64,000 bases of DNA from Elusimicrobiota bacterium (GCA_016209035.1 JACQWX010000126.1:16288-80287), one strand, 5' to 3'; numbered from the stretch's first letter, positions 576-53,262 are shown. Translations and numbers: made by a program. The notes: generated from the sequence alone by a model not told the origin.

Positions 576-3500
576 GTGTGGACATCTGTTTCACCCGCGA
601 CCATGCTGACCGGCTTCTTGAAGTGGCCCCCTGCCGCCCACGTCTTTCCTGATGGCGCAGGGGACGCTCGGCCTCCGGCCTGGACCGCGCCCCTGCTCGC
701 CTGCCTACTGGCTGCCGCCATGCCCGCCTTCGCTGCCGGCCCCGGCATCTCCGAGCCGCAGGTCCAGCAGTGCAACGACACCTTCGTCTCCGGGTCGTCC
801 ACGCGCAAGGCCTCGCCCCAGATCAAGGTCCCCATCCAGGACCCCACGGGCTTGAGGGTCGGCATCACCAGCACCCCCTACCGGTCGGCCGCCGGCTTTG
901 GGATGTGGCGTTTCAACACATCCTATACCAAGGCCCTCGAGAACAATTGTCTCGAGCAGGGTAACAAGAGAATCCGTTCGTGGGTCTATCGCTACGACGA
1001 TCCCGAGACGGCGGAACCCGTGATCGTGGGCCGGTGCGCCTACAGCGCGAGCACCCCCACAGCCGGATGCGCAGCCGACCTCAACACCATGGTTCTCGAC
1101 GCGACCGTCACCCAGTTCCCAATCAGAACCCCCTATCCATGGGTTTCCTGTCCGAGCAGCACCCAGACCATCGCCAATCATCCCGCCACCTATTCCTTCA
1201 ACCCCACTACCAGGACCGTGGACTCGGGGTGCTTGCCCGAGGCGACTTGCGGCTCGGCCAAGAATTGCCGATACTGGACCTGGACCTACGAGGATGCTTT
1301 CTCGAACATCACGGCCGGCCGCTGCACCTACAGCGCCAGCTCTACGACTCCCGAATGCGGGGCAGGCATCGGCAGCATGAGCCTCAGCGCGACGCTGCCT
1401 TGGCCCATCATCCAGCCCGAGTTGTTCTCCATCGGAGCATGTCCGGCGAGCACGGCCACGCTGCCCAGCGGGAATCAGCCCACCACCATCCCCCTGGGCC
1501 GATTCGACACGGGCCTGTTCAGAGACAGCGTGCACGCCCCCGTCGTGGAGAGCACCCAGGCCCTCACGATCGGCATCTACTACACCATGAGCGCCTGGGT
1601 CAGGACCTCGGCCGGGGGCTTGCAGAGGATATTCTCCCACCAGGATGGCACCAAGTACTGGGGATTCGGCCTCAACGGCGGAGCCCTTCGGCGTTTCGAC
1701 TCGCGCGAGGACGCCGGGAACCAGGACAACTCGCTGGGCTCGGGCTTGAACGACAATCAGTGGCACCATGTGGCCGTCGTGCGCAGGGACGGGGTGGAAT
1801 GGGAATTCTACAAGGACGGGCAGTCTCTAGGCACAACACCGGCCAGGACCGCTGCCGCCTTCTCGACAGGCTTCTCCAACCCCGCCTACGTCGGGAGCTA
1901 CCTCGGCTCATCGGAGTTCTTCAACGGCATGATCGACGACGTGCGCCTCTGGAGATACTCCATGACCGACGATGAGATGGCTCTCGACTACAACGCGACC
2001 GTCCACCGCTTCTCGATCAACGGGGGGAGCTCCTTCTCCTACGTCTTCCGCGATCCGCCCTCCAACGCCTACAATCCCCCGGCTTCCAACGGCACCACGG
2101 TCACCGTCTACTACCAGCCCGCGGTCCAGTCCGACATCACGACCGACCACAAGTACGTCTTCATGGCCCAGGACCGAACAGGAGAGTACACCGTCCAGGC
2201 CCCGTACACCGTGTACGTGGACAAGACCCCTCCGTCGAAGCCCGTGCTCTCCGGCGCCCCGCAATCCACGAACGAGATTCTCTGGACCTGGCCGACCCCC
2301 GCTTCGTTCTGCGGCCCTCCGGAGTACGCGGCCTTCTACACCCTGATCAACCCCGGCAGCGGCGCCACCATCATGAGCGTCCTGGACCCGACCCTGCAAA
2401 TCCTTGAGAACTTCGGAGGCGAGCCCCCCAACCAGCTCCACGGCCGGGTCATCTCGGCCACGGACATCTACGGCACCAGTCCTCTCTCCGACTGCACGAC
2501 CGCCTACACCAAGGCCGCCCAGCCCACGGCCTTGGCCGCGACCTCCATCTCGACCGGGTCGTTCGTCCTGCAGTGGAACAACCAGAACAACCCGAACTAC
2601 ACCCGCTACGAGCTCCAGTACAGCACGGTGGACGGGTTCGCCAGCGGCGCCGTGACGCTGGCCGCCATCAGCGACGACTTCAACGGCAGCCAGAAGGGGG
2701 TCTCCGGACTCCAGAACGGCACGACTTATTACGCCCGCGTCCGAGCCAAGAACGGCAGGCAAACCGACTCCTACGGCACCGACCTGACCGCCTACGCCAC
2801 CGCCGATTTCACCACCCTGCCCGCGGCCCCGGTCCTGACCGGCGCCGCTCTGTCCACCGGGTCCGTCCGCTGGGATTGGACCTCCGTGACGGGCGCCTTC
2901 GGCTACAAGCTCTACAGCTCGACGAACGGCCTGATGGTCGACACGCCCGCGCTCTCCTACTCCTCTTCGACGCTCAGCACCAACACGGCCTACGGCGCCT
3001 CGGTGGAGGCCTACGACCGTTACGGCACGGCCGGGCCGCGCTCGCCCACAGTCTACATCTTCACCCTGGCCACCAGCCCGGTCAACGCCTCCATCACCGC
3101 GGTCAGCACCAACGAGATCACCGTGTCCTGGGACGCCAACGGAAACGGCCCGCAGACCTACTACGAGGTCGTCATCGCGACGAACTCCGCCTTCGCCGCC
3201 GCGCTGAGCACCCAAGGCGTCACTGGCACCAGCGCGACCATCAAGGACCTTTTCCCGAAGACGACCTACTACTTTCGGGTCAGGGCCGTCAGCGGGGGGG
3301 GGGTCGCGACCCCCTTCATCCCGGAGACGCCGCTCAAGGCCGTGACCTACCCGAACCCCTACGTGAGCGTCTCGGACCCCCTGACCTCGCCCTACGTGCT
3401 CAAGGACGGCCTGGTGGGGTTGTGGCACATGGACGAGAGCTCGAACACTTCGGCCGCGGATTCCTCGTACACGAACAACGTCGGGACGCTCACCTGCATG

Positions 3501-5950: not shown

Positions 5951-6958
5951 ATGGCCAAGAAGGTCCTCGTCACCGGATGCTCCGGCTACCTGGGAGAGCT
6001 CCTGGTCAGGAACCTCCTCGCCCACCCCCTCGTCCAGAAGGTGGTGGCCGTGGACCTCAAGCCTCCCAAGGTCCCGGCGCGGCACAAGTTCAAGCATTGC
6101 GCCGCCGACATCCGCGACGAGTTCCTCCTGCGCAGCATCATCGAGGAGGAATCCGTCGACACCATCTTCCACCTCGCGTTCATGGAAGCCGACCCCAGCC
6201 GGGCCGTGCTGTCCCACGCGATGAACGTCGGCGGGACGCTGACCGTGTTCGACGCCGCCAACCGGAGCGCGGCGGTCAACAAGCTCGTGATCACGAGCTC
6301 GACCTGGGCCTATGGCGCCCGCCGCGGGAACCCCGTGCCCCTGCGGGAGAGCGACCGCTTGAGGGCCACGGACTGGCCTTACGGGCTGCACAAGAGGCTC
6401 GTGGAGGAGGAGCTCGCCAAATCCCTTGCCCATTGCCGCAAGGGACTCAACGTGGCGGTCCTGCGGCTGGCCACGGTCGTCGGCGGGTCGGAGAGGCCCA
6501 AGGGGCCCGTGCGGCTCTTCTGCGAGGCGCCGTTCGGCGTGTCCGTCATGCTGCGCGGCGGCGAGATGCAGTTCCTCAGCGAGGCGGACTTCTGTAGAAC
6601 GATGAACCGCGCGATGGAGGAGCCCTCCTTCAGCGGGACCTACAACGTCGCCCCCGACGGCTGGACGACGGTCGCCGCTTTGTGCAGGAGGCTGGGCAAG
6701 ACGCGCATCCCCCTGCCCTATTCGTTCCTTTGGCTCTACTTCTTCCTCTCCAACACCCCGCGCCGGAAGGACTCCGTTTCCGAGGAACTGGCGGACATCC
6801 TGGCGTTCCCCGTGGTGGTCTCCAACGAGAAGATCAAGAAAGCCTTGGGCCTCGTCTTCGAGAAGGACTCCGAGGCCGCGTTCCTGGAGTGCGCCGCCGC
6901 CTGCGGCTGGAAGCCCCCGGCCCCTGCGCCTCTGGCGCAGGGGCCGCATGGGAAGTGA
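5951..6958 (+). CDS. NAD-dependent epimerase/dehydratase (SDR family)
   Basis: N-terminal Rossmann motif VLVTGCSGYLGELLV; length 335 aa. Confidence 0.8.
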   Translation: MAKKVLVTGCSGYLGELLVRNLLAHPLVQKVVAVDLKPPKVPARHKFKHCAADIRDEFLLRSIIEEESVDTIFHLAFMEADPSRAVLSHAMNVGGTLTVFDAANRSAAVNKLVITSSTWAYGARRGNPVPLRESDRLRATDWPYGLHKRLVEEELAKSLAHCRKGLNVAVLRLATVVGGSERPKGPVRLFCEAPFGVSVMLRGGEMQFLSEADFCRTMNRAMEEPSFSGTYNVAPDGWTTVAALCRRLGKTRIPLPYSFLWLYFFLSNTPRRKDSVSEELADILAFPVVVSNEKIKKALGLVFEKDSEAAFLECAAACGWKPPAPAPLAQGPHGK

Positions 6959-7544
6959 CATGGCGATGAAGGCGAACGACCCTGCCGCCGGCCTCGACCG
7001 CGTCGCGGGGCACATCCGCGCCATCCTCAGAGAGATCGGGGAAGACCCCGGCCGCCCGGGCATCGAGAAGACTCCCCGTCGCTACGCCAAGGCCCTCAGG
7101 GAGCTCACCTGCGGCTACGCGACCGACCTGGATGTCCTCTTCAACGGGGCGATGTTCCCCGTCTCCTACCATGAGATGGTCCTGGTCAAGGACATCCCGT
7201 GGTACTCGCTGTGTATGCATCACCTCCTCCCCTTCTTCGGCAAGGCGCACGTCGCCTACGTCCCGGACGGCAGGATCGTGGGCCTCTCCAAGATCCCCAA
7301 GCTCGTCGAGACCTTCAGCCGCAGGCTGCAGGTGCAGGAGCGCATGACCTGCCAGATCGCGCAGGCCCTGGCCGAGCGGCTCTCCCCGCTCGGGGTCGGG
7401 GTCGTGCTGGAGGCCCGGCACATGTGCATGGAGATGCGCGGCGCCAGGTCCGTGATGACGCCGACCGTGACCAGCGCCATGCTCGGCTGCTTCAGGAAGG
7501 ACCCCCGCACCCGGGAGGAGTTCCTCAGCCTTGTCCGGGGATGA
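6948..7544 (+). CDS. folE: GTP cyclohydrolase I
   Basis: conserved FolE core ...LCMHHLLPFFGKAHVAYVPDGRIVGLSKIPKLVETFSRRLQVQERMTCQIAQAL...; overlaps the upstream gene by 11 nt. Confidence 0.85.
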   Translation: MGSDMAMKANDPAAGLDRVAGHIRAILREIGEDPGRPGIEKTPRRYAKALRELTCGYATDLDVLFNGAMFPVSYHEMVLVKDIPWYSLCMHHLLPFFGKAHVAYVPDGRIVGLSKIPKLVETFSRRLQVQERMTCQIAQALAERLSPLGVGVVLEARHMCMEMRGARSVMTPTVTSAMLGCFRKDPRTREEFLSLVRG

Positions 7545-7572
7545 GAGCCTGTGATACAATCTAGCGCGGCTT

Positions 7573-7646
7573 GCGGGCGTGGTTCAATGGTAGAACGGGA
7601 GCTTCCCAAGCTCTAGACGAGGGTTCGATTCCCTTCGCCCGCTCCA
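7573..7646 (+). tRNA. tRNA-Gly (anticodon CCC), CCA encoded
   Basis: manual cloverleaf: acceptor GCGGGCG/CGCCCGC, D-arm GTTC-AATGGTA-GAAC, anticodon arm GGAGC-TTCCCAA-GCTCT, T-arm GAGGG-TTCGATT-CCCTT, discriminator T, CCA. Confidence 0.9.
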
Positions 7647-7707
7647 GATTTCCTCTGACTGCGGGCTGTGCCGCGTCGAAGACGCGGCACGCCCGCTCCA
7701 GATTTCC
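7636..7707 (+). repeat. 18-bp direct repeat CGCCCGCTCCAGATTTCC present twice (7636-7653 = tRNA-Gly 3' end plus 7 nt; 7690-7707), att-site-like duplication of a tRNA 3' end
   Basis: exact copies read from the sequence; the second copy ends 1 nt before the ATG of the next gene. Confidence 0.85.
7668..7690 (+). terminator. perfect 10-bp GC stem hairpin (GTGCCGCGTC gaa GACGCGGCAC) between the two direct repeats; possible tRNA terminator (no U-tract)
   Basis: seen directly. Confidence 0.4.
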
Positions 7708-7708
7708 G

Positions 7709-10009
7709 ATGCTCAGGCCGCTCTCGCTCGCCGTCCTTGTCGGCTGGCTGGTCCATGCTGGGCCTGCGCCCAGGGCGCAGGCCCAGGGGCCTCAGACCCA
7801 GAGGACGCTCGCGGAGGCCTCGCAGGGCTCGCGGACCCGAGCAGGGAAGGAGAGCGCCCGCGCCCTGCTGAGGCAGGGACACCGGCTCTACTTCCGCGGA
7901 GACCATGAGAGGGCGCTCAAGAGCTACGAGGCGGCCGTCCGCCTCTCTCAGGACCCCATCGAGCCCCTGCTCAACGGCGCCGTCGTGCTCGCAGAGCTCG
8001 GACGGCCGCGCGAGGCGGTCCGGTGGCACCGCCGGGCCGCGGCCCTGCCACGCGCCGACGCCGACGCGCTCGACGCCCTGGCATGGGCGGAGTTCAACAT
8101 CGAAGACCTTGCCGATGCCCGCCGGCACTTCGAGGATGCTCTCGCCAGGTCGCCGGAGCATCCGCAGGCCCTCCTAGGCCTGGCCCGCGTGGAGCTCGAG
8201 GCCTCCAAACCCGTCGAGGCGCTCAAGCTCCTCGACCGGGCCGGCGCTTGCGCTCCCCTCGACACCCTCATCCCATTCTTCAAGGGCAAGGCCTACGCCC
8301 TCATGCGGGATCCGGCGCAGGAAGCGGCTGCCTGGCGTCAATGCGTCTCTGCCGACTCGTTCTTCATCGAGGCGCGCGAGGCCTTGGGGCTGGTCCACTC
8401 AAGGCTCCGGAACTTCGCGGAAGCCTGGAAGCAGTTCTCGAAGGCCGCGGATGCCGATCCCAAGAACAAGCGCTTCCAAACGCGCCTCGACGAGATGAGG
8501 TTCGCGGCGCCGGCCACTCCGAGCGCCCTCGGCGATGGCCGGATGCCCGTCCTGCGCGTGGGCATCGGCGCCAACATGGCGGGCAAGCCCGCTGCCTGCG
8601 CCCAGGGCGCAGGGGCCGCCGTCTCATGGTCGGTCAACCAGCCGTTCTGGGTCGTGGACGCCTCCACGCAGAAGAAGCTCGCCCGCGGGCAGCCGGGGCA
8701 GACCTGGCAGGCTCGCCGGGTCGCGCAGAAGAAGCGCTCGATCGTCGAACTGCGGGGCCCTGGCCGGGACCAGAGGCTCAAGGCCGCTCGCCCGGTCGTC
8801 ATCCGTCCCGACTCCGCCTCCGAAGGGCTCATCTCCGTCAACTTCGCGCCTTGCTCCGAGGGCTCCGGCGCCGAGGACCTGAGCGACGGCGTCCCGCGGT
8901 GCAGCCTCAGGGCCGACCGCCGCCTGCGCGGAGATCTCGAGATCGCATCCTACCCAGAGAAGCGCTCTCTCAAGCTCATCAACCGCATCAACCTGGAGGA
9001 CTACACCCACGGCGTGCTCTCCATGGAGATGCCCATCGGCTCGCCGCTGGAGGCGCTCAAAGCCCAAGCCGCCTTGGCCCGCGCCCACGCGCTCTACATC
9101 AAGACGGTGGCCAGACGCCACCGCCGCGAGGGCTACGACCTCTGCGACAGCCAGCACTGCCAGGTCTACGGTGGGTTCGGGGCGGAGACGGCGCGCTCCC
9201 GGGAGATCGTCAAGGCCACCCGGGGCATGGTCGTGACCTACCAGGGCAAGCCCGCGCACGTCATCTACTCTTCGAACTGCGGCGGGCACACCCAGAGCGG
9301 CTCGGACCTCACCGGCTGGGGGAGCCTCCCGTATTGGCTGGGCATCCTGGACGCGGTCCAGCCCGGAGGGCGAGCGTCCCCTGCGCCATCAGGAAAGGTG
9401 TGGGCGCAGGCGGACGCGGCAGGCGGCGGTCGAGGCGCCGCCGGGGAAGACGGCTCCGGTTTCCCGGACTCGCCGTGGAGCCTCCGGCTCTGGTTGAGGT
9501 CGGCCCCGCAGGCTTTCTGCAAGCCCTCGACCCATGTCGGCGCCTCGCATTCCCGCTGGGCCAGGGTCTTCTCTTACCGCGAGCTCGACGAGAAGGTCAA
9601 CCGGCGGCGCCGCATCGGCAGGCTCATGGCCCTGCGCCCGGGGCATCGGTCCCCCGGCGGGCATCTCAACTCGTTTCGGGTCGTGGGGACGCGCGGGAGC
9701 TTCACCATCACCGACGAGATGAGCATCCGCAGCCTCCTGGGGATCGGCTCCTTGCGCAGCACCCTCTTCGTCCTGGACACGCAGTACAAGGCGAAGCCCG
9801 CGGGTCTGCCCCCAGGACGCGGGGGCCGCAGGCCCAAGGGCCCGCCCGCCCTGGTGCCTGTCTCCGTAGTCCTGCATGGGGGGGGGTGGGGGCACGGGGT
9901 CGGCATGTGCCAATCCGGGGCCATGGGCCGGGCCGAGGCGGGCCAGACCTTCGACGAGATCATCAAGGCCTATTTCAAGGGCGTCGAGATCTCTCGACTG
10001 TCCTACTGA
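7709..10009 (+). CDS. TPR-repeat plus SpoIID/LytB-domain protein (about 766 aa), secreted
   Basis: signal peptide MLRPLSLAVLVGWLVHAGPAP; TPR-like helical repeats; SpoIID/LytB motifs CDSQHCQVYGG, VVTYQGKPAHVIYSSNCGGHTQSG, VVLHGGGWGHGVGMCQSGA. Confidence 0.8.
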   Translation: MLRPLSLAVLVGWLVHAGPAPRAQAQGPQTQRTLAEASQGSRTRAGKESARALLRQGHRLYFRGDHERALKSYEAAVRLSQDPIEPLLNGAVVLAELGRPREAVRWHRRAAALPRADADALDALAWAEFNIEDLADARRHFEDALARSPEHPQALLGLARVELEASKPVEALKLLDRAGACAPLDTLIPFFKGKAYALMRDPAQEAAAWRQCVSADSFFIEAREALGLVHSRLRNFAEAWKQFSKAADADPKNKRFQTRLDEMRFAAPATPSALGDGRMPVLRVGIGANMAGKPAACAQGAGAAVSWSVNQPFWVVDASTQKKLARGQPGQTWQARRVAQKKRSIVELRGPGRDQRLKAARPVVIRPDSASEGLISVNFAPCSEGSGAEDLSDGVPRCSLRADRRLRGDLEIASYPEKRSLKLINRINLEDYTHGVLSMEMPIGSPLEALKAQAALARAHALYIKTVARRHRREGYDLCDSQHCQVYGGFGAETARSREIVKATRGMVVTYQGKPAHVIYSSNCGGHTQSGSDLTGWGSLPYWLGILDAVQPGGRASPAPSGKVWAQADAAGGGRGAAGEDGSGFPDSPWSLRLWLRSAPQAFCKPSTHVGASHSRWARVFSYRELDEKVNRRRRIGRLMALRPGHRSPGGHLNSFRVVGTRGSFTITDEMSIRSLLGIGSLRSTLFVLDTQYKAKPAGLPPGRGGRRPKGPPALVPVSVVLHGGGWGHGVGMCQSGAMGRAEAGQTFDEIIKAYFKGVEISRLSY
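7760..7791 (+). repeat. short palindromic element family B copy 1 (core CCTGCGCCCAGGGCGCAGG) in-frame in the signal-peptide region
   Basis: gggcctgcgcccagggcgcaggcccaggggcc; the same 19-bp palindrome recurs at 8595-8613 and 10154-10172. Confidence 0.75.
8591..8620 (+). repeat. palindromic element family B copy 2, in-frame (encodes PAACAQGAGAAV)
   Basis: gctgcctgcgcccagggcgcaggggccgcc. Confidence 0.75.
9362..9410 (+). repeat. palindromic element family A copy 2, in-frame inside the SpoIID domain (encodes GGRASPAPSGKVWAQADAAGG)
   Basis: cccggagggcgagcgtcccctgcgccatcaggaaaggtgtgggcgcagg; reverse complement of the 631-682 copy; stem CCTGCGCC/GGCGCAGG. Confidence 0.75.
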
Positions 10010-10050
10010 CACCAATGCGTAACACGCGTCTGCTAGCATTGCAGGGCGAC

Positions 10051-11256
10051 ATGTCCGAATCCCGCCGTCGTTCTGCGGGCTTGGCCTACGGGTGGCCCTG
10101 GCTGCTGGCGGCGGCCCTCTGCTGCGAGGGCCTGCCGGCCGTCCCGCCCTCGGCCTGCGCCCTGGGCGCAGGGGCCGCGGGCTGGCCCGACGACAACACG
10201 GCCCGCTCCGACTACGAACGCCTGGGACGCCGCACGCGGCGGGGCGCCGGCGCGCCGGAGTTCGACACGATGCGGCTGTCGATCCGGCCCTGGCTGAGCA
10301 AGGGACACGGCCTTTTCCGGGCCGGCTATCCCTTCCCCTGGGTCATCTGCGACTTCTCCGGCAACCCCGAGAACTGCTCCCGACGGCTCAAATCCGAGGT
10401 GTCTCTCGGCTACACCCGGGACTTCAAGGAGGTCGAACACCCGGTCATGGTGTTCAACTACGAGTTGAGGGTCCACCGCCGCCTCTCCTTCGACGTGGAG
10501 GTCGCCGGCAGCGACTACGGCCGCGGACGCTACCATGCGCACGATTGGATCCAGGCGCCGAATCAAAAGCTCTGGTACGTTCCCACCGACACGTGGTACG
10601 ACCGTCCCAACTATCAGGATTGGGCCTTGGAAGAATCCAGGCTGAAGGGGGACACGCGGATGCTCTCCTCCAACGCCTATTTCCGGGTCTTCATCCACCC
10701 GTCCCGCAGGCCGAAGAACGAGGAGGTCATCCGCCAGGCGTTCGACGTCTTCGCGGGCTACACGCTCTACCAGGACACCTTCCGCCTCGCCGAACTGTCC
10801 CAAATCATGGCCAACCGGACCTGGACCGTGACCCCGCCCGAAGGCCCGGTCGGCGGCTTCGACTCGAAGCAACGGCTTCGCTGGGAGGGCTTCCGCCTGG
10901 GCATCCGCGAGGAGCTGGACCTCCCGCAGCGCTTCTCCCTCATGGGCCGCTTCGCCTACTCCCCGGACCTCGAGTTCCAGGGGGCCAGCTACCTGAACCT
11001 GCAGACCGACGAACGGCAGGGGGACCCCAGCCGGGTCCAGACCGCGCGGGGCCGTTCCTTCGACTGGGCCGTACTCGCCGGCTACAGCCCGTGGCGCTTC
11101 CTCTCGTTCGAGCTGGGCTACATGTGGATGTACTTCAAGGGCGGCAGAGGCTCGGAAAAGGTCTACTACACGGACGGCTCCATGGAAGAGATCGAGCTCG
11201 AGAAGGTCTGGAGCAGGCGCCATGGGGTCTTCACAGGCCTCACTTTCAAGTACTAG
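10051..11256 (+). CDS. putative outer-membrane beta-barrel protein (401 aa), function unknown
   Basis: in-frame Met inside the long GC-artefact ORF 8023-11256; signal-peptide-like N-terminus; C-terminus ...GLTFKY with terminal aromatic; alternating beta-strand-like sequence. Confidence 0.55.
   Translation: MSESRRRSAGLAYGWPWLLAAALCCEGLPAVPPSACALGAGAAGWPDDNTARSDYERLGRRTRRGAGAPEFDTMRLSIRPWLSKGHGLFRAGYPFPWVICDFSGNPENCSRRLKSEVSLGYTRDFKEVEHPVMVFNYELRVHRRLSFDVEVAGSDYGRGRYHAHDWIQAPNQKLWYVPTDTWYDRPNYQDWALEESRLKGDTRMLSSNAYFRVFIHPSRRPKNEEVIRQAFDVFAGYTLYQDTFRLAELSQIMANRTWTVTPPEGPVGGFDSKQRLRWEGFRLGIREELDLPQRFSLMGRFAYSPDLEFQGASYLNLQTDERQGDPSRVQTARGRSFDWAVLAGYSPWRFLSFELGYMWMYFKGGRGSEKVYYTDGSMEEIELEKVWSRRHGVFTGLTFKY
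10151..10180 (+). repeat. palindromic element family B copy 3 (CCTGCGCCCTGGGCGCAGG), in-frame in the N-terminal region of the OM protein
   Basis: cggcctgcgccctgggcgcaggggccgcgg. Confidence 0.7.
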
Positions 11257-11309: not shown

Positions 11310-12011
11310 ATGATATCAGCGATGAATCGCGGCGCGGTCGAGGCCGGTGGCGCGAGAGGGACAGCCGTCGTCTTGCTGGCATGCGCCGCCGTAGCGGCGG
11401 GCGGCTGCCGGGGCTCGTCGCCCATCTTCGACGAGGGGCCTGAGAACCGGTTCGCCGCCGTGGTCATGGGCACGCGCATCATCCTGCCGACCGGCGAGAC
11501 CAACGCGGGCGGCATCGCCATCAACCTGGAGGGGGAAGGCGGCCGCCGAGCGAACCTCTACCGGCTCGAGGTGCCGGCCGGCCGGGCCTTGCTCTACCCG
11601 GTCGAGCCCGGGGTCTACCGCTTGACCCCGACGCGCTCGGTCTTCGGCTGGCACCAGGCGCAGATGCGCATCGTCGCCGACGACTTCGCCTACAAGGCGC
11701 CCTTCCCTTCCCAGATCATGCGCAAGGGAGCCATCGACCTGCGGCCCAAGAAGGTCGTCTCCTTGGGCATCATCGAGGCGCGCTTCGTCTCGGACCCGGT
11801 GAAGAAGGAGGCCAAGATCGTCGTGCGCATCGACGACAGCGTGGCCGCGCGCCGGGACGCGGTCCAGCAGATCGTCCGCGACATGGCCTCCGCCTCCACC
11901 CCGGCCGACGAAAGGGACCGCGACTTCGCCTGGTCCGGGTCCCTGGAGGACCACCTCGTGACCCTCCAGGCCGAGATCGAGCGCCGGCCTCTCTACAAGC
12001 CGTCCCCTTGA
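11310..12011 (+). CDS. lipoprotein, function unknown (233 aa)
   Basis: lipobox ...LLACAAVAAGGC; internal Met of the GC-artefact ORF 10092-12011. Confidence 0.55.
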   Translation: MISAMNRGAVEAGGARGTAVVLLACAAVAAGGCRGSSPIFDEGPENRFAAVVMGTRIILPTGETNAGGIAINLEGEGGRRANLYRLEVPAGRALLYPVEPGVYRLTPTRSVFGWHQAQMRIVADDFAYKAPFPSQIMRKGAIDLRPKKVVSLGIIEARFVSDPVKKEAKIVVRIDDSVAARRDAVQQIVRDMASASTPADERDRDFAWSGSLEDHLVTLQAEIERRPLYKPSP

Positions 12012-15642: not shown

Positions 15643-15643
15643 T

Positions 15644-15682
15644 GGCGTCAGGCATTGCGCAACTTGCGCAATGCCTGACGCC
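15644..15682 (+). terminator. 39-bp perfect palindrome (19-bp arms GGCGTCAGGCATTGCGCAA c TTGCGCAATGCCTGACGCC) immediately after the kdsC-like stop; terminator or protein-binding site
   Basis: seen directly; no U-tract. Confidence 0.5.
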
Positions 15683-15727
15683 ACGCTATTGCGGATTCCT
15701 TGCCATGTGTACTAGAATGCCCCTGCC

Positions 15728-16549
15728 ATGGGCGATCTCATCGGCCTGAAGAAGTACTCCAAGCCTTCGGCGGTCGAGCCGCAGGAACCCGGGCCGGTCT
15801 CGGCGACGGCGGCCTCGTCGTCGAAGCCTTTCGGATCGCAGACCCTCTGGATGAGCCTCCTGGTCGTGGACTCTCTGCTCATCGCGGTCTTCGGCAGCTA
15901 CCTCGGCGCGGTGGGAATGAAGACCTACCAGCAATGGCGCAAGCCCGCCGCCCCTGGGCCTTCGGCCCAGGCCCGCTCCAAATCCCCGGCCAAGGTCGAG
16001 CCTGTCAAGACTCAGCCTGCTCAACCGGCCCCCGGCGCGGCCGAGGCCGGAGCCCGAGCGTCGCCTGCGCCATCAGGAAAGGCGCTGGCGGCAGGCGGCG
16101 CGGCCGAGGCCAAGGAAGCCCCGGCCCCCAAGCCGGCCGCCTCCAAGCCCGCCCCCGGGGCTGCCGCCCCAGGCCCGGCGCCCTTGCGCCAGGAGCCCTC
16201 GTCCGCGGTCGAGGGCGGAGCCCGAGCGCCCCGGACGCCCTCTGGAAAGGCATTGGCGGACGTGGGCAAGGATGGGGCGGCGCCGGATTCAGGCGTCAAA
16301 GCCTTGCCGGTGGACTTCTCCTTCCACGCGCCGCACGCCAAGTCAGTCCGGCTGGCAGGCGCCTTCCTCGTGCGGGGGGGAGGGAGGAAGGACATGGTCC
16401 GGGGCTCGGGCGGCGACTGGACCCTCACCCTGTACCTCAAGCCCGGCGCCTACCGGTACTGGTTCCTGGAGGACGGCAAGCGGAAGATCGACCCCGCCAA
16501 CACCAAGGTCGAACGCGGGGCCTCGGTGCTGGTGGTCTACCCGAAATAG
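15728..16549 (+). CDS. membrane-anchored protein with Pro/Ala-rich linker and C-terminal CBM48/AMPK-beta glycogen-binding-like (E-set) domain
   Basis: one TM helix (LWMSLLVVDSLLIAVFGSYLGAV); C-terminal FSFHAPHAKSVRLAGAF...WTLTLYLKPGAYRYWFLEDGKRKIDPANTK typical of CBM48; the linker carries two family-A elements. Confidence 0.6.
   Translation: MGDLIGLKKYSKPSAVEPQEPGPVSATAASSSKPFGSQTLWMSLLVVDSLLIAVFGSYLGAVGMKTYQQWRKPAAPGPSAQARSKSPAKVEPVKTQPAQPAPGAAEAGARASPAPSGKALAAGGAAEAKEAPAPKPAASKPAPGAAAPGPAPLRQEPSSAVEGGARAPRTPSGKALADVGKDGAAPDSGVKALPVDFSFHAPHAKSVRLAGAFLVRGGGRKDMVRGSGGDWTLTLYLKPGAYRYWFLEDGKRKIDPANTKVERGASVLVVYPK
16046..16095 (+). repeat. palindromic element family A copy 3, in-frame (encodes AGARASPAPSGKALAAGG)
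   Basis: ccggagcccgagcgtcgcctgcgccatcaggaaaggcgctggcggcagg. Confidence 0.7.
16211..16266 (+). repeat. degenerate family A copy 4, in-frame (encodes GGARAPRTPSGKALADVG)
   Basis: gagggcggagcccgagcgccccggacgccctctggaaaggcattggcggacgtggg shares both arms with copy 3. Confidence 0.5.
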
Positions 16550-23840: not shown

Positions 23841-25384
23841 GCCCCGACGACCCCTCCGCGCCCCCGCCGCCCCCTCCGGGGGCTCCCATCCCGCCGGCGC
23901 CGCCTGCGCCCGAGCTCGTCCGGCCCGCGCCCACCCCTGCGCAGCAGGTCCCGCGCACCCCGATGATGGATTTCATGGAGCGAAGGCTCGCCGCCCTCGA
24001 GGCCGATCTCGCCCGGGAACGCGAGCGCGCCTCCTCGGCGGAGAGCGTGCTCAAGGCCCAGGCCTCCATGCGCTCCGAGGTCGAGGCCCAGCTCAAAGCC
24101 CTGACGGACCAGCTCCGGCGGGAGAAGTCCGACCGGGACCATGAGGAGTCCTCCTCCCAGGCCAAGGGCCGGATCTCTGCGCTCGAGGAGCGGCTCGACT
24201 CGCTGCACCGCACCTGGGCCGACCTGCTCAAGGAGACGCTCCTGGGCAAGGAGGTCGTGGCCAAGGTTTGGCCGGCCGAGGTCGTGGGCGAGATGAAGGA
24301 GTGGCGCCAAGCCCTCTCAGCCCTCCCCAGGCTCGTCGACGCGGTCGCGGACCTCGAATCGCGCCAGCGGGGCCAGGACCTCCAGGTCAAGGATGAGCTG
24401 CGCGCCCTCGTCGGGGACCTTTCCGCCGCGTTGCGGGAACGCTTCGCCGACGCGGAACATAAGCGCGAGATCGACCTGGCCAAGGCTGACGACCGCCTCG
24501 GGGCCGTGGCCCGTGAACGGCTCGCCCTGCGGGAAGCCTTCGACGAGGCCGGCCACGCCCTGCGCTCCGACCTCCTCAAGGAGCGCCTCGCCCAGGAAGC
24601 GGCCTTCAACGAGGCCCTCTCCGGCATCGCGGCCCGCATCGACGACCTCGGCCGCCGCCACGCCCAATCCGACCGGGAGACCTCGGAGCTCAAGGAGGTC
24701 CTCGGCCAGGCCCTCTCCAGGGCCGAGCCCAAGGCCAAGGACGCGGTGATGGCGGAACTCGAGCACGAGAACGCCGACCTGCGCGGGATGCTCTCCGAGC
24801 GCATCGAGGCCTTGAGGCGCTACACCGAAGAGAGGAAGCGCATCGAGGCCAGCATGGGAGAGAGCCTCCTGGCCTTGAACCGCGAGCTCTCGCAAGAGAA
24901 GGCGAGAGGCCTCGAAGCCGGCCGGCGGATGATGGAGAAGGACCTGGAGATCACTTCGCTCAAGGACAGGCTCGACATGGCCTCCAAGACCGTCGAGGAG
25001 AGGGAGACGCGCTTCGCGTGTCTCGCGGTTGAGCGCGACGAGATCGCCCGCGCGATGGCGGCCGAGGCCGGGAGGCTCCGGGACGCCATTGAAGCCCGCA
25101 GGGTCTCCGACGAGACCTGGGCCAAGAAGGTCGCCGAGATGGAGAAGAAGCTCGACGAGGCCGCCGATATCTCCCAGCGGGAGGCGGCGTCGCGCCGGGA
25201 CCTTGCCAGCCAGGCGGCCGTCCTCTCCTCCCACGCCGCCAAAGCCCTCCAGGAGAGGGACGCCGCCGTCCAGGGCAGCGCCTCCTGGCAGGAAGAGCGC
25301 GCCCGGCTCCTGGAAGCCCTCAGGAAGAAGGACGACCTCATCTCCATGCTCTCCGCGTCGTTCCAGAACATCTTGAAGAAGTAG
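23837..25384 (+). CDS. proline-rich N-terminus plus long coiled-coil protein (515 aa), translationally coupled (ATGA overlap) to the PorV/PorQ-like gene
   Basis: MSPDDPSAPPPPPPGAPIPPAPPAPELV... then about 450 aa of heptad-like E/R/A/L-rich sequence; no TM; start overlaps the upstream stop. Confidence 0.6.
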   Translation: MSPDDPSAPPPPPPGAPIPPAPPAPELVRPAPTPAQQVPRTPMMDFMERRLAALEADLARERERASSAESVLKAQASMRSEVEAQLKALTDQLRREKSDRDHEESSSQAKGRISALEERLDSLHRTWADLLKETLLGKEVVAKVWPAEVVGEMKEWRQALSALPRLVDAVADLESRQRGQDLQVKDELRALVGDLSAALRERFADAEHKREIDLAKADDRLGAVARERLALREAFDEAGHALRSDLLKERLAQEAAFNEALSGIAARIDDLGRRHAQSDRETSELKEVLGQALSRAEPKAKDAVMAELEHENADLRGMLSERIEALRRYTEERKRIEASMGESLLALNRELSQEKARGLEAGRRMMEKDLEITSLKDRLDMASKTVEERETRFACLAVERDEIARAMAAEAGRLRDAIEARRVSDETWAKKVAEMEKKLDEAADISQREAASRRDLASQAAVLSSHAAKALQERDAAVQGSASWQEERARLLEALRKKDDLISMLSASFQNILKK

Positions 25385-25416
25385 CGGTCCGTCCTTCACG
25401 GCCTTCCGTCAAGGCC

Positions 25417-25503
25417 TTACAGCCCATAGCCGCATGGACCCGCCTCGTAGACCACGGCCAGCCGCGGATGCTCGGCCTTCAGCCGACGGAACAGCTTGTC
25501 CAC
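25417..25503 (-). pseudogene. remnant of an IS110-family-like transposase N-terminus (fragment only, preceded by an in-frame stop)
   Basis: minus-strand translation VDKLFRRLKAEHPRLAVVYEAGPCGYGL* fits the IS110-family N-terminal pattern (..hydrophobic-x-[MV]-EA-x-G-x-x-[YH]..L); lies at the left edge of the low-G+C island. Confidence 0.3.
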
Positions 25504-25718
25504 CGCATCACACCCCACGGTTCAAAGGTCGGCGAGCCAGAAAATCGCACTACGGTGGGTAGGTGCCTAACATTCATGCGTTGGGCTGACTGGATGCTCT
25601 CACCAGGGGAAGCGAATACGGCCCCCGGACGGACGACAGAAAAGATACAATGAACGTATCCCCAAGCGATTCCGCCAAACAAATCGGGCAGCCGCTATAG
25701 ACCATTAAGGATGAGAAG

Positions 25719-26458
25719 ATGATATCAGCCAAGACATTGGCGGCAATAAGTTCCAAAACGATCGCCTACTGGAAGGCCGAAGTAAAAAAGCCCGAGATAG
25801 TCGGAATCGCCAAGGGCAAAGAAATCGGCCACAAACTCGCAGCAAGGGCAAAGAAATCGGCCACAAACTCGCAGACCTCGTCGATGAGAAAACGACGGCA
25901 CTGCTCACGGTGGAATTCCTCACGAAACACCAACGGGACTCGCAGGGCCAAAAGCGGTCACGCAGCATGGGCGATTTGTGGTTGCAGGACAGTGGTATTT
26001 ATCATCCGGTCAACGTCAAGACGGGCATCGTTGGCGCAGAAGGCCAGCCAAATCTGGTCTCGTTGAAAAAGGTTTTCAGCGCCATTATGGCGAGGCAGAT
26101 TGACTCCTACTATCTCTTGATTGTCAAAATGGACATTAGCGCCAAAGGAATTGCGCCATCCGTGTGCCTCATTGACATGCTTGACTGGCTAGACTACGTC
26201 ACTTTTGATTCTGGCCCCGGCCAGATGATGCTGAGAGCTGTCAAGTTCTTCGCCGAATTCGATCCGACGAAAGTCAAGACCCTCGACATCAAGAGCAAAG
26301 CGCAGAGACTCATGGAGTTGTACGAGGATGGCGAACGGAGACTCAAGGAGAACCGCGAGAGAGACCTTCAGCACTACCGACATGAGTTTCGTGATTTCCT
26401 CGCGGGCAAGAATTTCCGCGTCACGCCCGAAACTCAAAGGAGCCTCATCCTGCAATGA
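25719..26458 (+). pseudogene. type II restriction endonuclease candidate inactivated by a frameshifting 32-bp tandem duplication (intact length would be 235 aa)
   Basis: the N-terminal reading frame (MISAKTLAAISSKTIAYWKAEVKKPEIVGIAKGKEIGHKLA) continues seamlessly into ORF 25910-26458 (..DLVDEKTTALLTVEFLTKHQRDSQ...) once one 32-bp copy is removed; stop overlaps the start of the adjacent DNA methyltransferase (ATGA); low-G+C island. Confidence 0.55.
25811..25874 (+). repeat. perfect 32-bp tandem duplication (caagggcaaagaaatcggccacaaactcgcag x2)
   Basis: read directly; unit length not divisible by 3, so it frameshifts the restriction endonuclease (REase) gene. Confidence 0.95.
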
Positions 26459-28164: not shown

Positions 28165-28367
28165 TGCGCAGTAAAAGAGTTGAGGCACTTCTCGAAGCAG
28201 CGGCCAGGATCAGGGAATTCTGTAACGCGCGTGGCTACGATTTCCAGGGGCGTCTACTCGTAAGGCGACAGAATCGCAGTCTAAAAGTCATCGCGCCTGA
28301 ACTTATTGACCTTTGCATAACTAATGGAAGGATGGCTCATCGTTTCCATGGGAGATCGGAAGCATAG
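28164..28367 (+). CDS. small hypothetical protein (67 aa) translationally coupled to the MTase (TGATG overlap)
   Basis: MRSKRVEALLEAAARIREFCNARGYDFQGRLLVRRQNRSLKVIAPELIDLCITNGRMAHRFHGRSEA; no recognisable domain. Confidence 0.35.
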   Translation: MRSKRVEALLEAAARIREFCNARGYDFQGRLLVRRQNRSLKVIAPELIDLCITNGRMAHRFHGRSEA

Positions 28368-50196: not shown

Positions 50197-51880
50197 AGGC
50201 TCCGTGAAGCGGCCTCCAGGCCCAGAGCCGTTCCCGGCCGCCCTGCGCCTCTATCTCCTCTCGGGCGTCTTCGTGACCGGGGCCGCGGTGCTCGCCCTCG
50301 AGCTGGTGGGGTCCCGCGTCATCAGCCCGTTCTACGGCTCGTCGTTGTACTGCTGGGCGGCCATCATCACGGTCACCATGGTCGCGCTCGCGGCGGGCTA
50401 CGGCCTCGGCGGCCGCGCCGCCGACCGCGACCCCACGCCGGACCTGTTCCCGAGACTGGTCGCGGCCGCGGCCGTGGCGGTCGCTCTCATCCCGCTCCTG
50501 AGGATCCCGGTCCTGCGGCACACCGCCTGGATGGGGGTGCGGCTGGGCGCGCTGGCGAGCTCGGCCGTCCTCTTGGGTCCCGCGCTCGCGTGCCTGGGGG
50601 CCGTGGTCCCCGTCGTAGTGCGGCTCCTGACCCGGGAGGTCTCTTCCGTGGGCAGCCGGGCCGGCGAGGTCATGGCCGTCTCCACTTTAGGAAGCGTCCT
50701 GGGCGCCGTGGCGTCCGGGTTCTTCCTCATCCCCAACCTCCCGGTCCCACGCATCCTCTTCGGGCTCGCCGCGCTCCTCTTCCTGCTCTGCGGCGTGGGG
50801 CTCATCATCGGCCGCCGGCGGTTCCCGGTGAAGACGGCGGTGGCCGCCGTCTCGGCCGCGGTCCTCGGCTGGTGGCCCGGGAGCCACGGGATGCTGTTCG
50901 CGAGGCAGTCGCTCTACGGCGAAGTCAAGGTCTTGGACTCGAACGGGCGGCTCTACCTCCTTGTCGACGGGGTGACGCAATCCGTCGCGCGCAGGCTTGG
51001 GGAGGGGTTTGAAGCCGACTCCCCGTACGTGCACACGCTCGAACTCGCGGCGCTCCTGCCCCATGGGGGGCAGGTCCCCGGAGGCGCAGGCAGTTCTCCG
51101 CTCGCCGGAGGGAGCCTGGCGCGGGGCAGGCCGCGTCCCAGGGCTCTGTTCATCGGCTCCGGGGCAGGGCAGCTCCCGGACTCCTTCGAGATCCGCTACG
51201 GCATCGACTCGGACGTCGTCGAGATCGACCCGGTCATGCTGGAGGCGGCGCGGCTCTTCGGCTTCCCGAGACGCCGTCAGGGCAGCCCGGACCCCGGCCG
51301 CGTCTTCGTGGAGGATGGCCGCACCTTCATGGAGAGAATCGGCAGGGACGCGAGGGACGCCATAGGGGAAGGCGGGCGCGTCCGGCGCTACGACATCATC
51401 GTGCTCGACGCCTTCGTCGGGGAAAACCCGCCCTACCATCTCTTCACCGCGGAATCCTTCCAGGCCGCCCGCCGCCTACTCGAGCCCGACGGCGTCCTGG
51501 CCGCCAACCTCGTGAGCCTCGTGGGCGCGGGCCAAGACGACGCCTGGGTCACCGCCTACAAGACCATGCGGTCGGTCTTCAAGGAGGTGCGCGTCCACCT
51601 CGCATCTCCGCCCCACGAAGGGCTGGCCAACGTCGTGTTCTTCTGCTCCGACGGACCTCTCGACGGGGCGCTGGCTCGGGCCCGGGCTCGGGCCCGGGCC
51701 GAGGTCCGGCGGGGCAGCGAGTACGCTCTCAGCCACGAGTTGACCCCTCCGCCCGAGGCGCTGCGGGCCGCGGTCGCGCTGAACGACGACTACGCCCCTG
51801 TCGAATCCCTGCTGGCCAAGACCGCGCTCGCATGGCGCAAGGTCGTGCAGGACACGGCCGGCGAGGCGGCCCTGCGCTAA
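50186..51880 (+). CDS. fused multi-TM / spermidine-synthase-family protein (polyamine aminopropyltransferase-like), 564 aa
   Basis: 7-8 N-terminal TM helices; C-terminal YDIIVLDAFVGENPPYHLFTAESFQAARRLLEPDGVLAANLVS spermidine-synthase core; ARARARARA run. Confidence 0.7.
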   Translation: MAREGSVKRPPGPEPFPAALRLYLLSGVFVTGAAVLALELVGSRVISPFYGSSLYCWAAIITVTMVALAAGYGLGGRAADRDPTPDLFPRLVAAAAVAVALIPLLRIPVLRHTAWMGVRLGALASSAVLLGPALACLGAVVPVVVRLLTREVSSVGSRAGEVMAVSTLGSVLGAVASGFFLIPNLPVPRILFGLAALLFLLCGVGLIIGRRRFPVKTAVAAVSAAVLGWWPGSHGMLFARQSLYGEVKVLDSNGRLYLLVDGVTQSVARRLGEGFEADSPYVHTLELAALLPHGGQVPGGAGSSPLAGGSLARGRPRPRALFIGSGAGQLPDSFEIRYGIDSDVVEIDPVMLEAARLFGFPRRRQGSPDPGRVFVEDGRTFMERIGRDARDAIGEGGRVRRYDIIVLDAFVGENPPYHLFTAESFQAARRLLEPDGVLAANLVSLVGAGQDDAWVTAYKTMRSVFKEVRVHLASPPHEGLANVVFFCSDGPLDGALARARARARAEVRRGSEYALSHELTPPPEALRAAVALNDDYAPVESLLAKTALAWRKVVQDTAGEAALR

Positions 51881-53262
51881 TGCTCACCAAGATCGCGGAG
51901 AGGGTCCTGCTCGTCGGCGTGGGACTCAAGCCCCCGGGCCTGCGGCCCAGGGGCCTGGGGCCCGACGGCCCCATGGGGCCGTCGGGCCGCACGGTCGAAG
52001 ACAGCCTCTCCGAGCTGCGCGGCTTGGTCGAGACCGCGGGCGCCGTGGTCGCGGGGACCGTGAGCCAGTCGGTGACGCGCTACCATCCCGGGACCCTCAT
52101 CGGCAGCGGCAAGGTGCTGGAGGTCGCTCAGATGGCCCGAGAAGTCTCGGCCCGCACCGTCATCCTCGACGCGGACCTGTCCCCCGCCCAGCAGAAGACG
52201 CTGGAGAAGGCGACCGACTCCAAGGTCATCGACCGCACCAGGCTCATCCTCGACATCTTCGCGAAGCGCGCCAAGACCTCCGAGGGCCGGCTCCAGGTGG
52301 AGCTCGCCCAGCTCTCCTACCTCCTGCCGCGCTTGACCGGGGCCTGGCGCTCCTTCTCCCAGCAGGTCGGCGGCATCGGCACCCGCGGCCCCGGAGAGCG
52401 CAAGCTGGAATACGAACGGCGCCACATCCAGTCGCGCATCACGCGCTTGAAGAGCGAGATCGAGAAGGTCAAGGCGCGGCGTCAGGTGCAGCGCTCGAGG
52501 CGGCTCTCCATCCCCGTGCCCCTCGTCGCGATCATCGGCTACACCAACGTCGGGAAATCCACCCTGCTCAACGCCCTGCTGTCGCAAGCCTCCCGTGTCG
52601 CGAGCCCCCCCCGCGGGGGGGCGAGCATCGGGGGGGCAGATGAGGGGGCAAGAAGCCGTTTCGTCTACGCCGACGACAAGCTCTTCGCGACCCTCGACCC
52701 GACCACGCGGCGCGTGCGCCTGCCGGACGGGACCCATGTGGTGGCCACGGACACGGTTGGCTTCATCCGGCGCCTGCCTACGGCGCTGGTGGCGGCGTTC
52801 CGCTCCACGCTGGAGGAGGCGGGCCTCGCCGACTGCCTGCTCGTCGTGACGGACGCCACCGCCCCTGACTTTTCGGCGCAGGACAGCGCCGTCGACGCCG
52901 TCCTCGACGAGCTCGGCGCAGGCGCGGTGCCCAGGGTCGAGGTCTTCAACAAGACGGACCTCGTCAGCCCCGAGCGAAGACGGGAGCTCGCGCTCTCCCA
53001 TCCGGGCCGGACGCTCATCTCGGCCGTGACCGGGGAAGGCATCTCGGCCGCGCTCGACCGGGTCCAGGAGATACTCTCGCGCAGGTGGCTCCTGAGGGAG
53101 CTCGACCTCCCGCACGGCGCGGGTCGGTTCGCCTCCGTCATCTACGCCAGCAGCCAGGTCATCAAAGAGACGCATGACGGGACCATGGTCCGCTACCGGA
53201 TGAGGGTCACGGCCGAGAACTGGGAGCGACTGCGGGCATTGACGCGGCAGTATTTTTGCTAG
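51880..53262 (+). CDS. hflX: GTPase HflX (with two atypical in-frame GC-rich insertions)
   Basis: HflX N-domain ERVLLVGV...LVETAGAVV; G1 GYTNVGKSTLLNAL; G2 LFATLDPT; G3 DTVGFI; G4 NKTD. Confidence 0.85.
   Translation: MLTKIAERVLLVGVGLKPPGLRPRGLGPDGPMGPSGRTVEDSLSELRGLVETAGAVVAGTVSQSVTRYHPGTLIGSGKVLEVAQMAREVSARTVILDADLSPAQQKTLEKATDSKVIDRTRLILDIFAKRAKTSEGRLQVELAQLSYLLPRLTGAWRSFSQQVGGIGTRGPGERKLEYERRHIQSRITRLKSEIEKVKARRQVQRSRRLSIPVPLVAIIGYTNVGKSTLLNALLSQASRVASPPRGGASIGGADEGARSRFVYADDKLFATLDPTTRRVRLPDGTHVVATDTVGFIRRLPTALVAAFRSTLEEAGLADCLLVVTDATAPDFSAQDSAVDAVLDELGAGAVPRVEVFNKTDLVSPERRRELALSHPGRTLISAVTGEGISAALDRVQEILSRRWLLRELDLPHGAGRFASVIYASSQVIKETHDGTMVRYRMRVTAENWERLRALTRQYFC
51931..51990 (+). repeat. 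60-bp GC-rich palindromic in-frame insertion in hflX (encodes PPGLRPRGLGPDGPMGPSGR), related to family B
   Basis: cccccgggcctgcggcccaggggcctggggcccgacggccccatggggccgtcgggccgc; contains a perfect 13-bp stem GCCCGACGGCCCC atg GGGGCCGTCGGGC. Confidence 0.65.
52594..52656 (+). repeat. homopolymer-rich palindromic in-frame insertion in the hflX G-domain (C8-GC-G7, G7, G5)
   Basis: cgagccccccccgcgggggggcgagcatcgggggggcagatgagggggc encodes RVASPPRGGASIGGADEGARSR between the P-loop and switch I. Confidence 0.6.

Follow-up and report, generated by a model that had tools for sequence, protein, structure and literature searches.

In-frame fusion of repeats into genes is known from RPE and BRE (PMC3184786), of which RPE, the palindromic elements of Rickettsia, measure ~105-146 bp (Ogata et al. 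2000, reviewed in PMC3184786). The present analysis concerns comparable elements in a 64,000-nucleotide stretch of Elusimicrobiota DNA (GCA_016209035.1, JACQWX010000126.1:16288-80287), hereafter the window, and in particular family B, a 19-bp perfect palindrome located within protein-coding genes. Like RPE, the Elusimicrobia elements are palindromic and non-autonomous, lie in frame inside conserved genes, are translated, are specific to a lineage and have no known transposase. The behaviour typical of RPE, namely palindromic insertion in frame into conserved open reading frames and absence from the orthologues, was also found here. The elements are set apart from RPE by described size and host: the units measure 19-90 nt at ~75-80% G+C, in the smallest, 8-13 perfectly paired bp enclose a 3-nt loop, and the copies are strongly clustered locally.

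Mitochondrial GC clusters, such as GC42 of Saccharomyces, are mobile palindromic units that merge and shuffle (PMC4478555, where the Allomyces double-hairpin elements and the 'byp' elements are also cited). They share with the Elusimicrobia elements a length of tens of nucleotides, a G+C-rich palindromic sequence, propagation, fast diversification, the merging and shuffling of modules, and the lack of a known dedicated enzyme. They differ in being organellar, mostly intergenic and set in an A+T-rich background, whereas the elements described here are chromosomal, lie in frame in genes against a G+C-rich background and have a constant CCTG...CAGG stem base.

The palindromes of the REP/REPIN group (REP, repetitive extragenic palindrome; partner RAYT, REP-associated tyrosine transposase, Y1 HUH) and of IS200/IS605 are short, G+C-rich, non-autonomous hairpins recognised on single-stranded DNA (ssDNA). 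REPs lie outside genes, number in the hundreds and are frequently arranged as inverted pairs; they have a GTAG-type head and are accompanied by a RAYT gene. The Elusimicrobia hairpins resemble the REP/RAYT system in having a conserved tetranucleotide foot on a variable yet complementary stem. Unlike REPs, all copies of B and of the related families A and C lie inside coding sequences, and their foot is CCTG...CAGG in place of a GTAG/GTGG head. Among the ~39 proteins scanned in the 64 kb, no RAYT gene was found. As with miniature inverted-repeat transposable elements, filled and empty sites occur in related genomes; B differs from these in being a bare palindrome without separate termini and without a target-site duplication of fixed length.

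Template-switch (quasipalindrome) mutations make and maintain perfect hairpins and invert spacers (PMC8794818, PMC5941160, PMC8604942). Features shared with the window are the making or perfecting of an inverted repeat in a single event, the extension of arms into the flanks, the inversion of the spacer and multinucleotide coding changes. Template switching is a mutational process, however, and not a repeat family; alone it leaves unexplained the identical 19-26-nt units at several sites and the tail and loop of family A, which are conserved across genomes. The closest analogues are RPE, with other repeats fused in frame into genes, and GC clusters in behaviour, and REP/RAYT in architecture. 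Palindromic repeats in genes are known; by this comparison, the Elusimicrobia host and a previously undescribed hairpin family would be new. No description of such elements in Elusimicrobia was found in the literature.

Family B palindromes and their empty sites

As judged by sequence and architecture, family B is a lineage-private in-frame insertion and part of a clade-specific set of G+C-rich hairpins, and the same comparisons place this set at different positions in different genomes. The data covered 64 kb of the source genome and ~130 kb from relatives. The TPR-SpoIID protein of the window is 100% identical to MBI4679403.1, from an Elusimicrobia metagenome-assembled genome (MAG), on an 83.7-kb contig. 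Syntenic loci for the B region were L032 (GCA_016218545.1), L033 (GCA_016234805.1, the closest relative) and L034 (JGI 3300037810). Further syntenic loci were L082, from the MAG of L033, and L083, from the MAG of L032; L084 belongs to GCA_016212795.1. The B palindromes of the window are as follows.

6918..6946: B-type palindrome with 13-bp stem CGGCCCCTGCGCC/GGCGCAGGGGCCG and loop TCT, DNA fold -22.3 kcal/mol, z -4.3; it forms the final epimerase codons and stops 2 nt ahead of the folE ATG (6948)
7758..7786: B palindrome, codons 17-26 of the TPR-SpoIID gene; the stem of the exact 19-mer at 7763-7781 extends perfectly to 13 bp, CTGGGCCTGCGCC/GGCGCAGGCCCAG, z -3.1
8595..8613: B palindrome, exact 19-mer, in the TPR-SpoIID linker, where it belongs to an in-frame insertion of +15 nt that only the window has
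10126..10172: B palindrome (10154-10172, with CTG centre) and a 5' extension, which together make up an in-frame insertion of +30 nt that only the window has, in the signal-peptide region of the gene for the 401-aa protein

The 19-mer has the form CCTGCGCC-CWG-GGCGCAGG and occurs at 7763, 8595 and 10154, the first two copies being exact (CCTGCGCCCAGGGCGCAGG, 7763-7781 and 8595-8613) and the third flipped at its centre (CCTGCGCCCTGGGCGCAGG, 10154-10172). The palindrome reported at these three places by the first-pass annotation is real: the matches are exact, and none was obtained in 100 dinucleotide shuffles with 2 mismatches permitted. Its assignment to three genes needs rewording, as the exact 19-mer lies in two genes, and in the third, the epimerase gene (5951-6958), the stem recurs around a TCT loop (6923-6941). 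This hairpin and another at 9380-9410, with a 15-nt loop (ATCAGGAAAGGTGTG) and equal to a copy of family A, were the two extra hairpins with the same 8-bp stem in a two-arm search that allowed any spacer. All five same-stem hairpins of the 64 kb lie inside 6923-10172 (3.25 kb), a clustering with P ~3e-5 for five random sites, so that within the window B is strictly local and not dispersed. None was found in the syntenic loci L032, L033 and L034.

The copies at 6923 and 7763 both have perfect 13-bp stems, of which the outer 5 bp differ between the two. When folded as ssDNA, these two, the A copy at 9380 and a palindrome in hflX are far more stable than shuffles (z -3.1 to -4.6), and the 8-bp copies at 8595 and 10154 are unremarkable in their context. 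The last two have 26 nt in common (GCCTGCGCCCWGGGCGCAGGGGCCGC), in the same frame. At the epimerase end of L033 (1137-1173), two overlapping palindromes of its own, CGGCCGCC-TGCGGCT-GGCGGCCG and CGGCCGGC-GGGA-GCCGGCCG, end at the folE start codon, the same junction as that of the 13-bp hairpin 6918-6946.

The 6923 copy encodes PAPLAQGP in the variable C-terminal tail of the epimerase and has no counterpart in L032 or L034. The peptide of the 7763 copy, GPAPRAQ, lies immediately past the signal-peptide core of the TPR-SpoIID protein; AACAQGAGAA (8595) belongs to the linker of the same protein and SACALGAGAA (10154) to the signal-peptide region of the 401-aa protein. The earlier remark that B always encodes Ala/Gly/Pro-rich peptides in signal or linker regions holds as far as the copies are in frame at sites tolerant of insertion, but there is no frame preference. 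The hairpin class to which B belongs uses all three frames, and the peptides therefore simply follow from G+C-rich DNA. A reading as a peptide motif was rejected on the use of three frames and both orientations. With all frames used and one family A copy (616-692) reversed, the unit is therefore DNA and not peptide.

Functional cis-elements under selection, either binding sites of a dimeric protein or mRNA structures tuning the translation or stability of envelope-related genes, would account for some of these features. A 19-bp perfect inverted repeat is operator-like in size, and the distances from one perfect CCTGCGCC-stem hairpin to the next, among the five, are 840, 832, 785 and 774 bp (coefficient of variation 0.035; post hoc P ~7e-5, ends fixed). 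The end of the 6923 copy 2 nt before the folE start, at a junction where L033 has other palindromes, the position of several inserts in the first 40 codons of genes, and the covarying stem and conserved loop of family A point the same way. However, the regular spacing of ~800 bp is lost once a degenerate member at 9806 and an insert at 8867 are included, and the 15-nt spacer at 9380 is incompatible with the same dimer geometry. The sites are missing at orthologous positions of relatives with the same gene order, and the host genes are functionally unrelated (HflX, BatD, spermine-synthase-like, gpsA in L084). Rfam searches returned tRNAs only (gathering threshold for the whole window; E<=1 for 6850-10250). 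A cis-acting role is accordingly quite improbable. In an operator- or parS-like array, the palindrome would be expected at orthologous positions or near the gene of its binding protein; it is missing from the syntenic loci of three relatives, and no candidate partner gene was found among the Pfam-scanned window proteins. An intrinsic terminator was rejected because no T-run follows any B copy.

At 8595, 11 aligned orthologues read GKPx-xR..., the three closest GKPV-ARAAVSW, and the window GKPAACAQGAGAAVSW. In a codon alignment with relatives, the +30 nt at 10154 belong to the window only; the 7763 region is not alignable to orthologues. The comparison with relatives proposed by the first-pass annotation thus yielded empty sites in the orthologues at 8595 and 10154, and these copies are therefore insertions. 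Empty sites were also found for the A copies at 616 and 9380 (the latter in L032 and L034), for the family C copy of the window (in L082 and L083) and for that of L082 (in the window and L083). Wherever a family member could be tested, it proved to be an in-frame insert without stop codons, with lengths of +12, +15, +30, +48, +66, +72 and +90 nt.

At both 8595 and 10154 the orthologues have GCSCGGGCCGC in place of GCAGGGGCCGC in the window. This target overlaps the right arms with 9/11 identity, and at both sites it became the same GCAGGGGCCGC. From this difference we infer that incoming DNA overlapped and overwrote a pre-existing near-identical 11-mer, and that short homology helped it to insert.

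An assembly or sequencing artefact would be conceivable for a source MAG known from a single contig. It is extremely unlikely: every testable insert is a stop-free multiple of 3, and related elements or identical hairpins occur in the independently assembled MAGs GCA_016234805.1 and GCA_016212795.1. Assembler k-mer artefacts, moreover, are typically far longer than a 19-nt palindrome.

The 19-mer was also sought in >600 Gb of public genomes and in a metagenome collection, neither of which includes the source genome. With a W centre, it gave 31 single matches in 185,579 species genomes and 45 in the metagenome collection; viral contigs gave 0. Matches were limited to one site per stretch at most, no locus had a second same-stem hairpin, and the flanks were unlike those of the window, recurring flanks coming only from a few unrelated loci seen repeatedly. 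The counts are estimated to be at the chance level for G+C-rich DNA, which would be a few tens, and B would therefore be private to this lineage. A widespread repeat family was rejected, the matches in genome, metagenome and viral collections being scattered singletons with foreign flanks.

Families A and C and the CCTG...CAGG hairpins

The set to which B belongs is best read as having members of three kinds. The first are short perfect hairpins, CCTG-SSSS-loop(3-4)-SSSS-CAGG, of which B would be the CGCC subtype; the others are family A and family C, the latter a hairpin followed by a core of ~50 nt. The window holds the following family A elements.

616..692, - strand: family A, a +72 nt in-frame insertion directly after codon 3 of the Laminin_G/fn3 protein gene
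9348..9423, + strand: family A in the SpoIID domain, hairpin CCTGCGCC-15 nt-GGCGCAGG, part of an in-frame insertion of +90 nt
16034..16111, + strand: family A in the CBM48-like protein linker, with a 15-nt direct repeat, GGCGCGGCCGAGGCC, on either side, its copies 63 nt apart
16203..16278, + strand: family A with degraded stem, ~170 nt 3' of the copy at 16034-16111 and in the same gene
11325..11354, + strand: fragment of the family A 5' tail, inserted as +30 nt, in the window only, behind the start codon (ATG) of a 229-aa gene

By nhmmer and a covariance model, family A has four copies in the window, one in L033 and one in L084. None was found in a further 95 kb of relatives, and the covariance model run over 192 kb (window and relatives) returned the six training copies and no additional members. 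The copy at 9380 has an orthologous copy at the same SpoIID site in L033 and is missing from L032, L034 and other orthologues; the copy in L084 lies in a different gene, encoding a TPR-SH3 protein. The presence of the family in different genes of three MAGs is evidence of mobility. The copies share a conserved tail, CCGGAGGSCGAGCGTC (16 nt), and a conserved 15-nt loop, MTCAGGARAGRYGTK. The fragment at 11325..11354 matches the family A 5' tail over 17-18 nt at 94%. Over the 12-bp stem, 92% of the cells are paired, with compensatory changes in 6/12 pairs, and sliding the partner columns as a control left only 32-50% paired. The family A core 18-mer had 2 chance matches in viral contigs, with unrelated flanks. 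A protein database search with the 149-aa concatenated open-frame translations of family A gave no match at E<=10, a powerless query that missed the window's own proteins too.

The identity of the B stem with that of family A, claimed at the outset, is perfect for the copy at 9380, which is the only A copy with the exact B stem; the copies at 616-692 and 16034-16111 have GGCGGCAGG, with a 1-nt bulge. The right-arm extension of B, GGCGCAGGGGCC, is similar to GGCGGCAGGGGGCC in the A copy that lies at 616-692, and the 30-nt insert at 10154 shows a weak likeness, by eye, to the A tail ahead of the hairpin.

Family C and further inserts or hairpins of the window are listed next.

51055..51139, + strand: family C in the spermine-synthase-like gene, hairpin CCTGCCCC-ATGG-GGGGCAGG and, after it, a 66-nt in-frame insert that only the window has
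51931..51990: HflX insert, window-only +48 nt in frame (51931-51978) near the N-terminus, with a 13-bp perfect palindrome at 51959-51988, z -4.6
9805..9835: degenerate hairpin of B type, TCTGCCCCC...GGGGGCCGCAGG, a window-only +30 nt in-frame insertion in SpoIID
15953..15971: perfect hairpin CCTGGGCC-TTC-GGCCCAGG in the CBM48-like gene, with its stem found again at 12180 of L084
44606..44625: perfect hairpin CCTGGGGC-GGCA-GCCCCAGG in the BatD linker; it overlaps an insertion of +12 nt that only the window has

Family C offers the clearest evidence of mobility, as it occupies shifted positions in two lineages. The window copy and that of L082 (9351-9440) are 91% identical over 44 nt (nhmmer E ~1e-22) and lie 42 codons (126 nt) apart in the orthologous gene, between well-conserved motifs; L083 has neither. 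The 66-nt insert of the window contains GGCGCAGG and CGCTCGCC, and its core ends in a second GGGGCAGG. The reverse complement of the C core has a likeness, by eye and unscored, to the A tail and left arm (CCGG..GCGAGCG..CCTGCGCC). At the C site of the window, L082 has a solo hairpin, CCTGCCCC-CAAG-GGGGCAGG.

This solo hairpin bears on the possibility that the B palindromes are remnants. Full-length elements of A or C type would once have lain at the same sites, and the loss of their loop or core between short direct repeats would have left footprints or internal-deletion derivatives. Deletion between the 8-nt GGGGCAGG repeats would yield the solo form, the B stems are identical to that of the A copy at 9380, and the insert at 10154 is weakly A-tail-like by eye. 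At the C site, however, a hairpin that came first and gained its core later costs the same single step, and the solo hairpin fits either order. The 15-nt A loop has no internal repeats able to delete down to CAG, the insert at 8595 has just 15 nt and no tail remnant, and four or five independent full insertions with matching deletions would be needed inside 3.25 kb. An origin of B as remnants is therefore unlikely.

The first-pass annotation had taken the hflX sequence for a degenerate B copy, a view that did not hold. It is a separate +48 nt insertion with a palindrome of its own, has only a 13-nt exact stretch in common with the 7763 copy and its flank, and is missing from seven relatives. 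In the G domain of HflX, a 20-codon insertion is common to the window (52603-52662) and L082 (10679-10738) and is not found in L083, with shorter inserts in P0041 and P0050 in the protein alignment. The window insertion there holds a GCCCCCCC-CGC-GGGGGGGC hairpin; that of L082 resembles the family C core by eye (GTTCTCCGCTC..GGGGGC), and blastn-short found an 11-nt exact match only.

The short hairpins were counted per locus as perfect hairpins CCTG-N4-loop(2-6)-N4-CAGG, with the following results.

Window: 7 observed against 0.10 expected; inner four bases CGCC four times (B), GGCC, GGGC and CCCC
L082: 2 observed against 0.02 expected; inner bases CCCC and CCGC
L084: 2 observed, no expectation computed; inner bases GGGC and GGCC
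L032, L033, L034, L083 and L085: 0 observed against 0.02-0.03 expected (four shuffled loci)

The inner four bases are G or C without exception. The class is read as CCT-GCG at 6923, 7763, 9380 and 15953, as CC-TGC at 8595 and 10154, and as C-CTG at 44606 and 51055. An identical 20-mer, CCTGGGGCGGCAGCCCCAGG, lies in BatD in the window and in the next gene in L084, directly ahead of the A copy. Perfect hairpins of at least 8 bp reach 3.1x the shuffled expectation in the window, against 1.3-1.5x in three relatives. The palindrome at 15953 arose largely by substitution, with about one additional codon compared with L033.

Such an excess raises the question of whether a mobile element is needed at all. 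Raised template switching together with short-patch ectopic gene conversion, a documented mechanism (PMC8794818, PMC5941160), might have seeded B from the copy at 9380 or 6923 onto nearby microhomologous sites. This would agree with the general 3.1-fold excess of perfect hairpins in the lineage, with the five copies in 3.25 kb, and with the target 11-mers at 8595 and 10154, already 9/11 identical to the donor arm before they were overwritten. It would also agree with the perfect arms that reach into unique flanks at 6923 and 7763, with the perfection of 15953 largely by substitution and with the hflX insert, which resembles a local 15-nt duplication or inversion. However, the 16-nt tail and 15-nt loop of family A are conserved across three MAGs in different genes, and family C is 91% identical at two positions in two lineages. 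Random template switching, furthermore, does not predict a constant CCTG...CAGG base on differing stems. An origin without any element is thus possible, though rather unlikely.

Proposed mode of spread

The explanation preferred here, to which about an even chance is given, is that B is the minimal short-loop form of lineage-specific, non-autonomous, G+C-rich palindromic insertion elements that are copied over short range in an Elusimicrobia clade. Copying would take place at the DNA level, in either orientation and any frame, mostly ~0.1-2 kb from an existing copy. The short range is suggested by the five B copies in 3.25 kb, by the two A copies 170 nt apart in one gene, by the C positions 126 nt apart in two lineages and by the GGGC hairpin in neighbouring genes of two genomes. 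A new copy would be anchored by short homology with its target, and intrastrand template switching would then keep the arms complementary and might invert the loop (CAG/CTG). Selection would spare only those copies that lie in frame in tolerant regions, here signal peptides, linkers, loops and termini. Rather than serving the host, the elements are probably passengers, selfish or neutral.

The copying itself may occur by copy-choice or template switching at replication, or through a hairpin-recognising enzyme acting on ssDNA. The differing yet fully complementary outer arms at 6923 and 7763 point to homogenisation of the arms in situ. Together with the CAG/CTG flip and the overwritten targets at 8595 and 10154, where both right arms were altered to the same sequence, they would fit replication template switching (PMC8794818, PMC5941160, PMC8604942). 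A protein that recognises the elements, or a structured intermediate, is suggested instead by the unvarying CCTG/CAGG base and by the conservation of tail and loop in family A. A bolder and rather doubtful extension is that hairpins, A and C are modules of one structured ssDNA (or RNA) mobile system with its own hairpin-recognising machinery. The short hairpins would then be its landing pads or its footprints, and its speciality would be to colonise coding sequence in frame and over short distances, much like an intragenic version of REP/RAYT.

Several points weigh against short-range copied elements. The source genome was covered over 64 kb, to which all statements on copy number, non-coding fraction and an associated transposase apply; B itself comes from one 3.25-kb stretch of one MAG, with no relative above 75% identity to date the events. 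No transposase, RAYT, HUH/Y1 or nuclease partner was found among the ~39 window proteins scanned by Pfam. There are no constant termini and no uniform target-site duplication, the flanking direct repeats ranging from 4 to 18 nt (4 nt at 616, 8 nt at 51067/51125, 15 nt at 16035/16098 and at 9357/9423 of L082). Some inserts, such as that at the N-terminus of HflX, resemble local tandem or inverted duplications and not copies of a dispersed family, and the compensatory changes could reflect selection for function in place of mechanical homogenisation.

If the elements are indeed copied at short range, an uncultured free-living bacterial lineage has palindromic elements down to 15-19 nt that colonise ordinary genes in frame, among them HflX, SpoIID, BatD and the spermine-synthase-like gene, with new copies mostly near existing ones. 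Selfish DNA inside protein-coding genes, known from Rickettsia and organelles, would thereby extend to a new phylum and a much smaller unit. The clade would offer a natural system for studying the origin and upkeep of perfect hairpins, by template switching or by an enzyme, and insertions as a source of new linker and signal-peptide sequence. In practice, orthologue alignments in this clade, and phylogenetic markers that rely on indels, would be confounded by such inserts.

Gene neighbourhood and other repeats

The genes around the B copies are the following.

5951-6958: epimerase gene (Pfam)
6948-7544: GTP cyclohydrolase I gene, folE (Pfam)
7573-7646: tRNA-Gly (Rfam)
7709-10009: TPR-SpoIID gene (Pfam)
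10051-11256: gene of the 401-aa protein, without Pfam match

Nearly all genes of the window (1-64000) lie on the + strand, the GC skew of which is negative throughout, with a steadily falling cumulative skew. A low-G+C island at 24000-28200 (G+C 0.59 against ~0.67) contains a perfect 32-bp tandem duplication (25811-25874) and an Eco57I-like N6 DNA methyltransferase gene (26455-28164), with adjoining open reading frames that have no Pfam match. This methyltransferase was the only related finding of the Pfam search for partner enzymes in the window. The contig of L033 begins with a fragment of an ISL3-family transposase (1-127), and its SpoIID gene is called from the linker onward only (440 aa), with ~950 bp (1752-2703) uncalled at the expected TPR part.

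At 7637-7707, a stretch made up of the last 10 nt of the tRNA-Gly(CCC) and the 7-8 nt that follow (GCCCGCTCCAGATTTCC) recurs 54 nt farther downstream, immediately ahead of the SpoIID start codon. The repeat copies enclose a perfect 10-bp hairpin (7668-7690); this signature, a hairpin insert between direct repeats of 15-18 nt, matches that of the A copy at 16034-16111 and of C in L082. In L032, a 78-bp perfect A+T-rich palindrome with 37-bp arms (8107-8184) lies at the junction of the PorV-like and epimerase genes, where the window has nothing comparable. The window has a perfect 41-bp palindrome of its own, TGGCGTCAGGCATTGCGCAA-C-TTGCGCAATGCCTGACGCCA, at 15643-15683 between the hydrolase and CBM48-like genes, which is intergenic, not G+C-extreme and unrelated to B.

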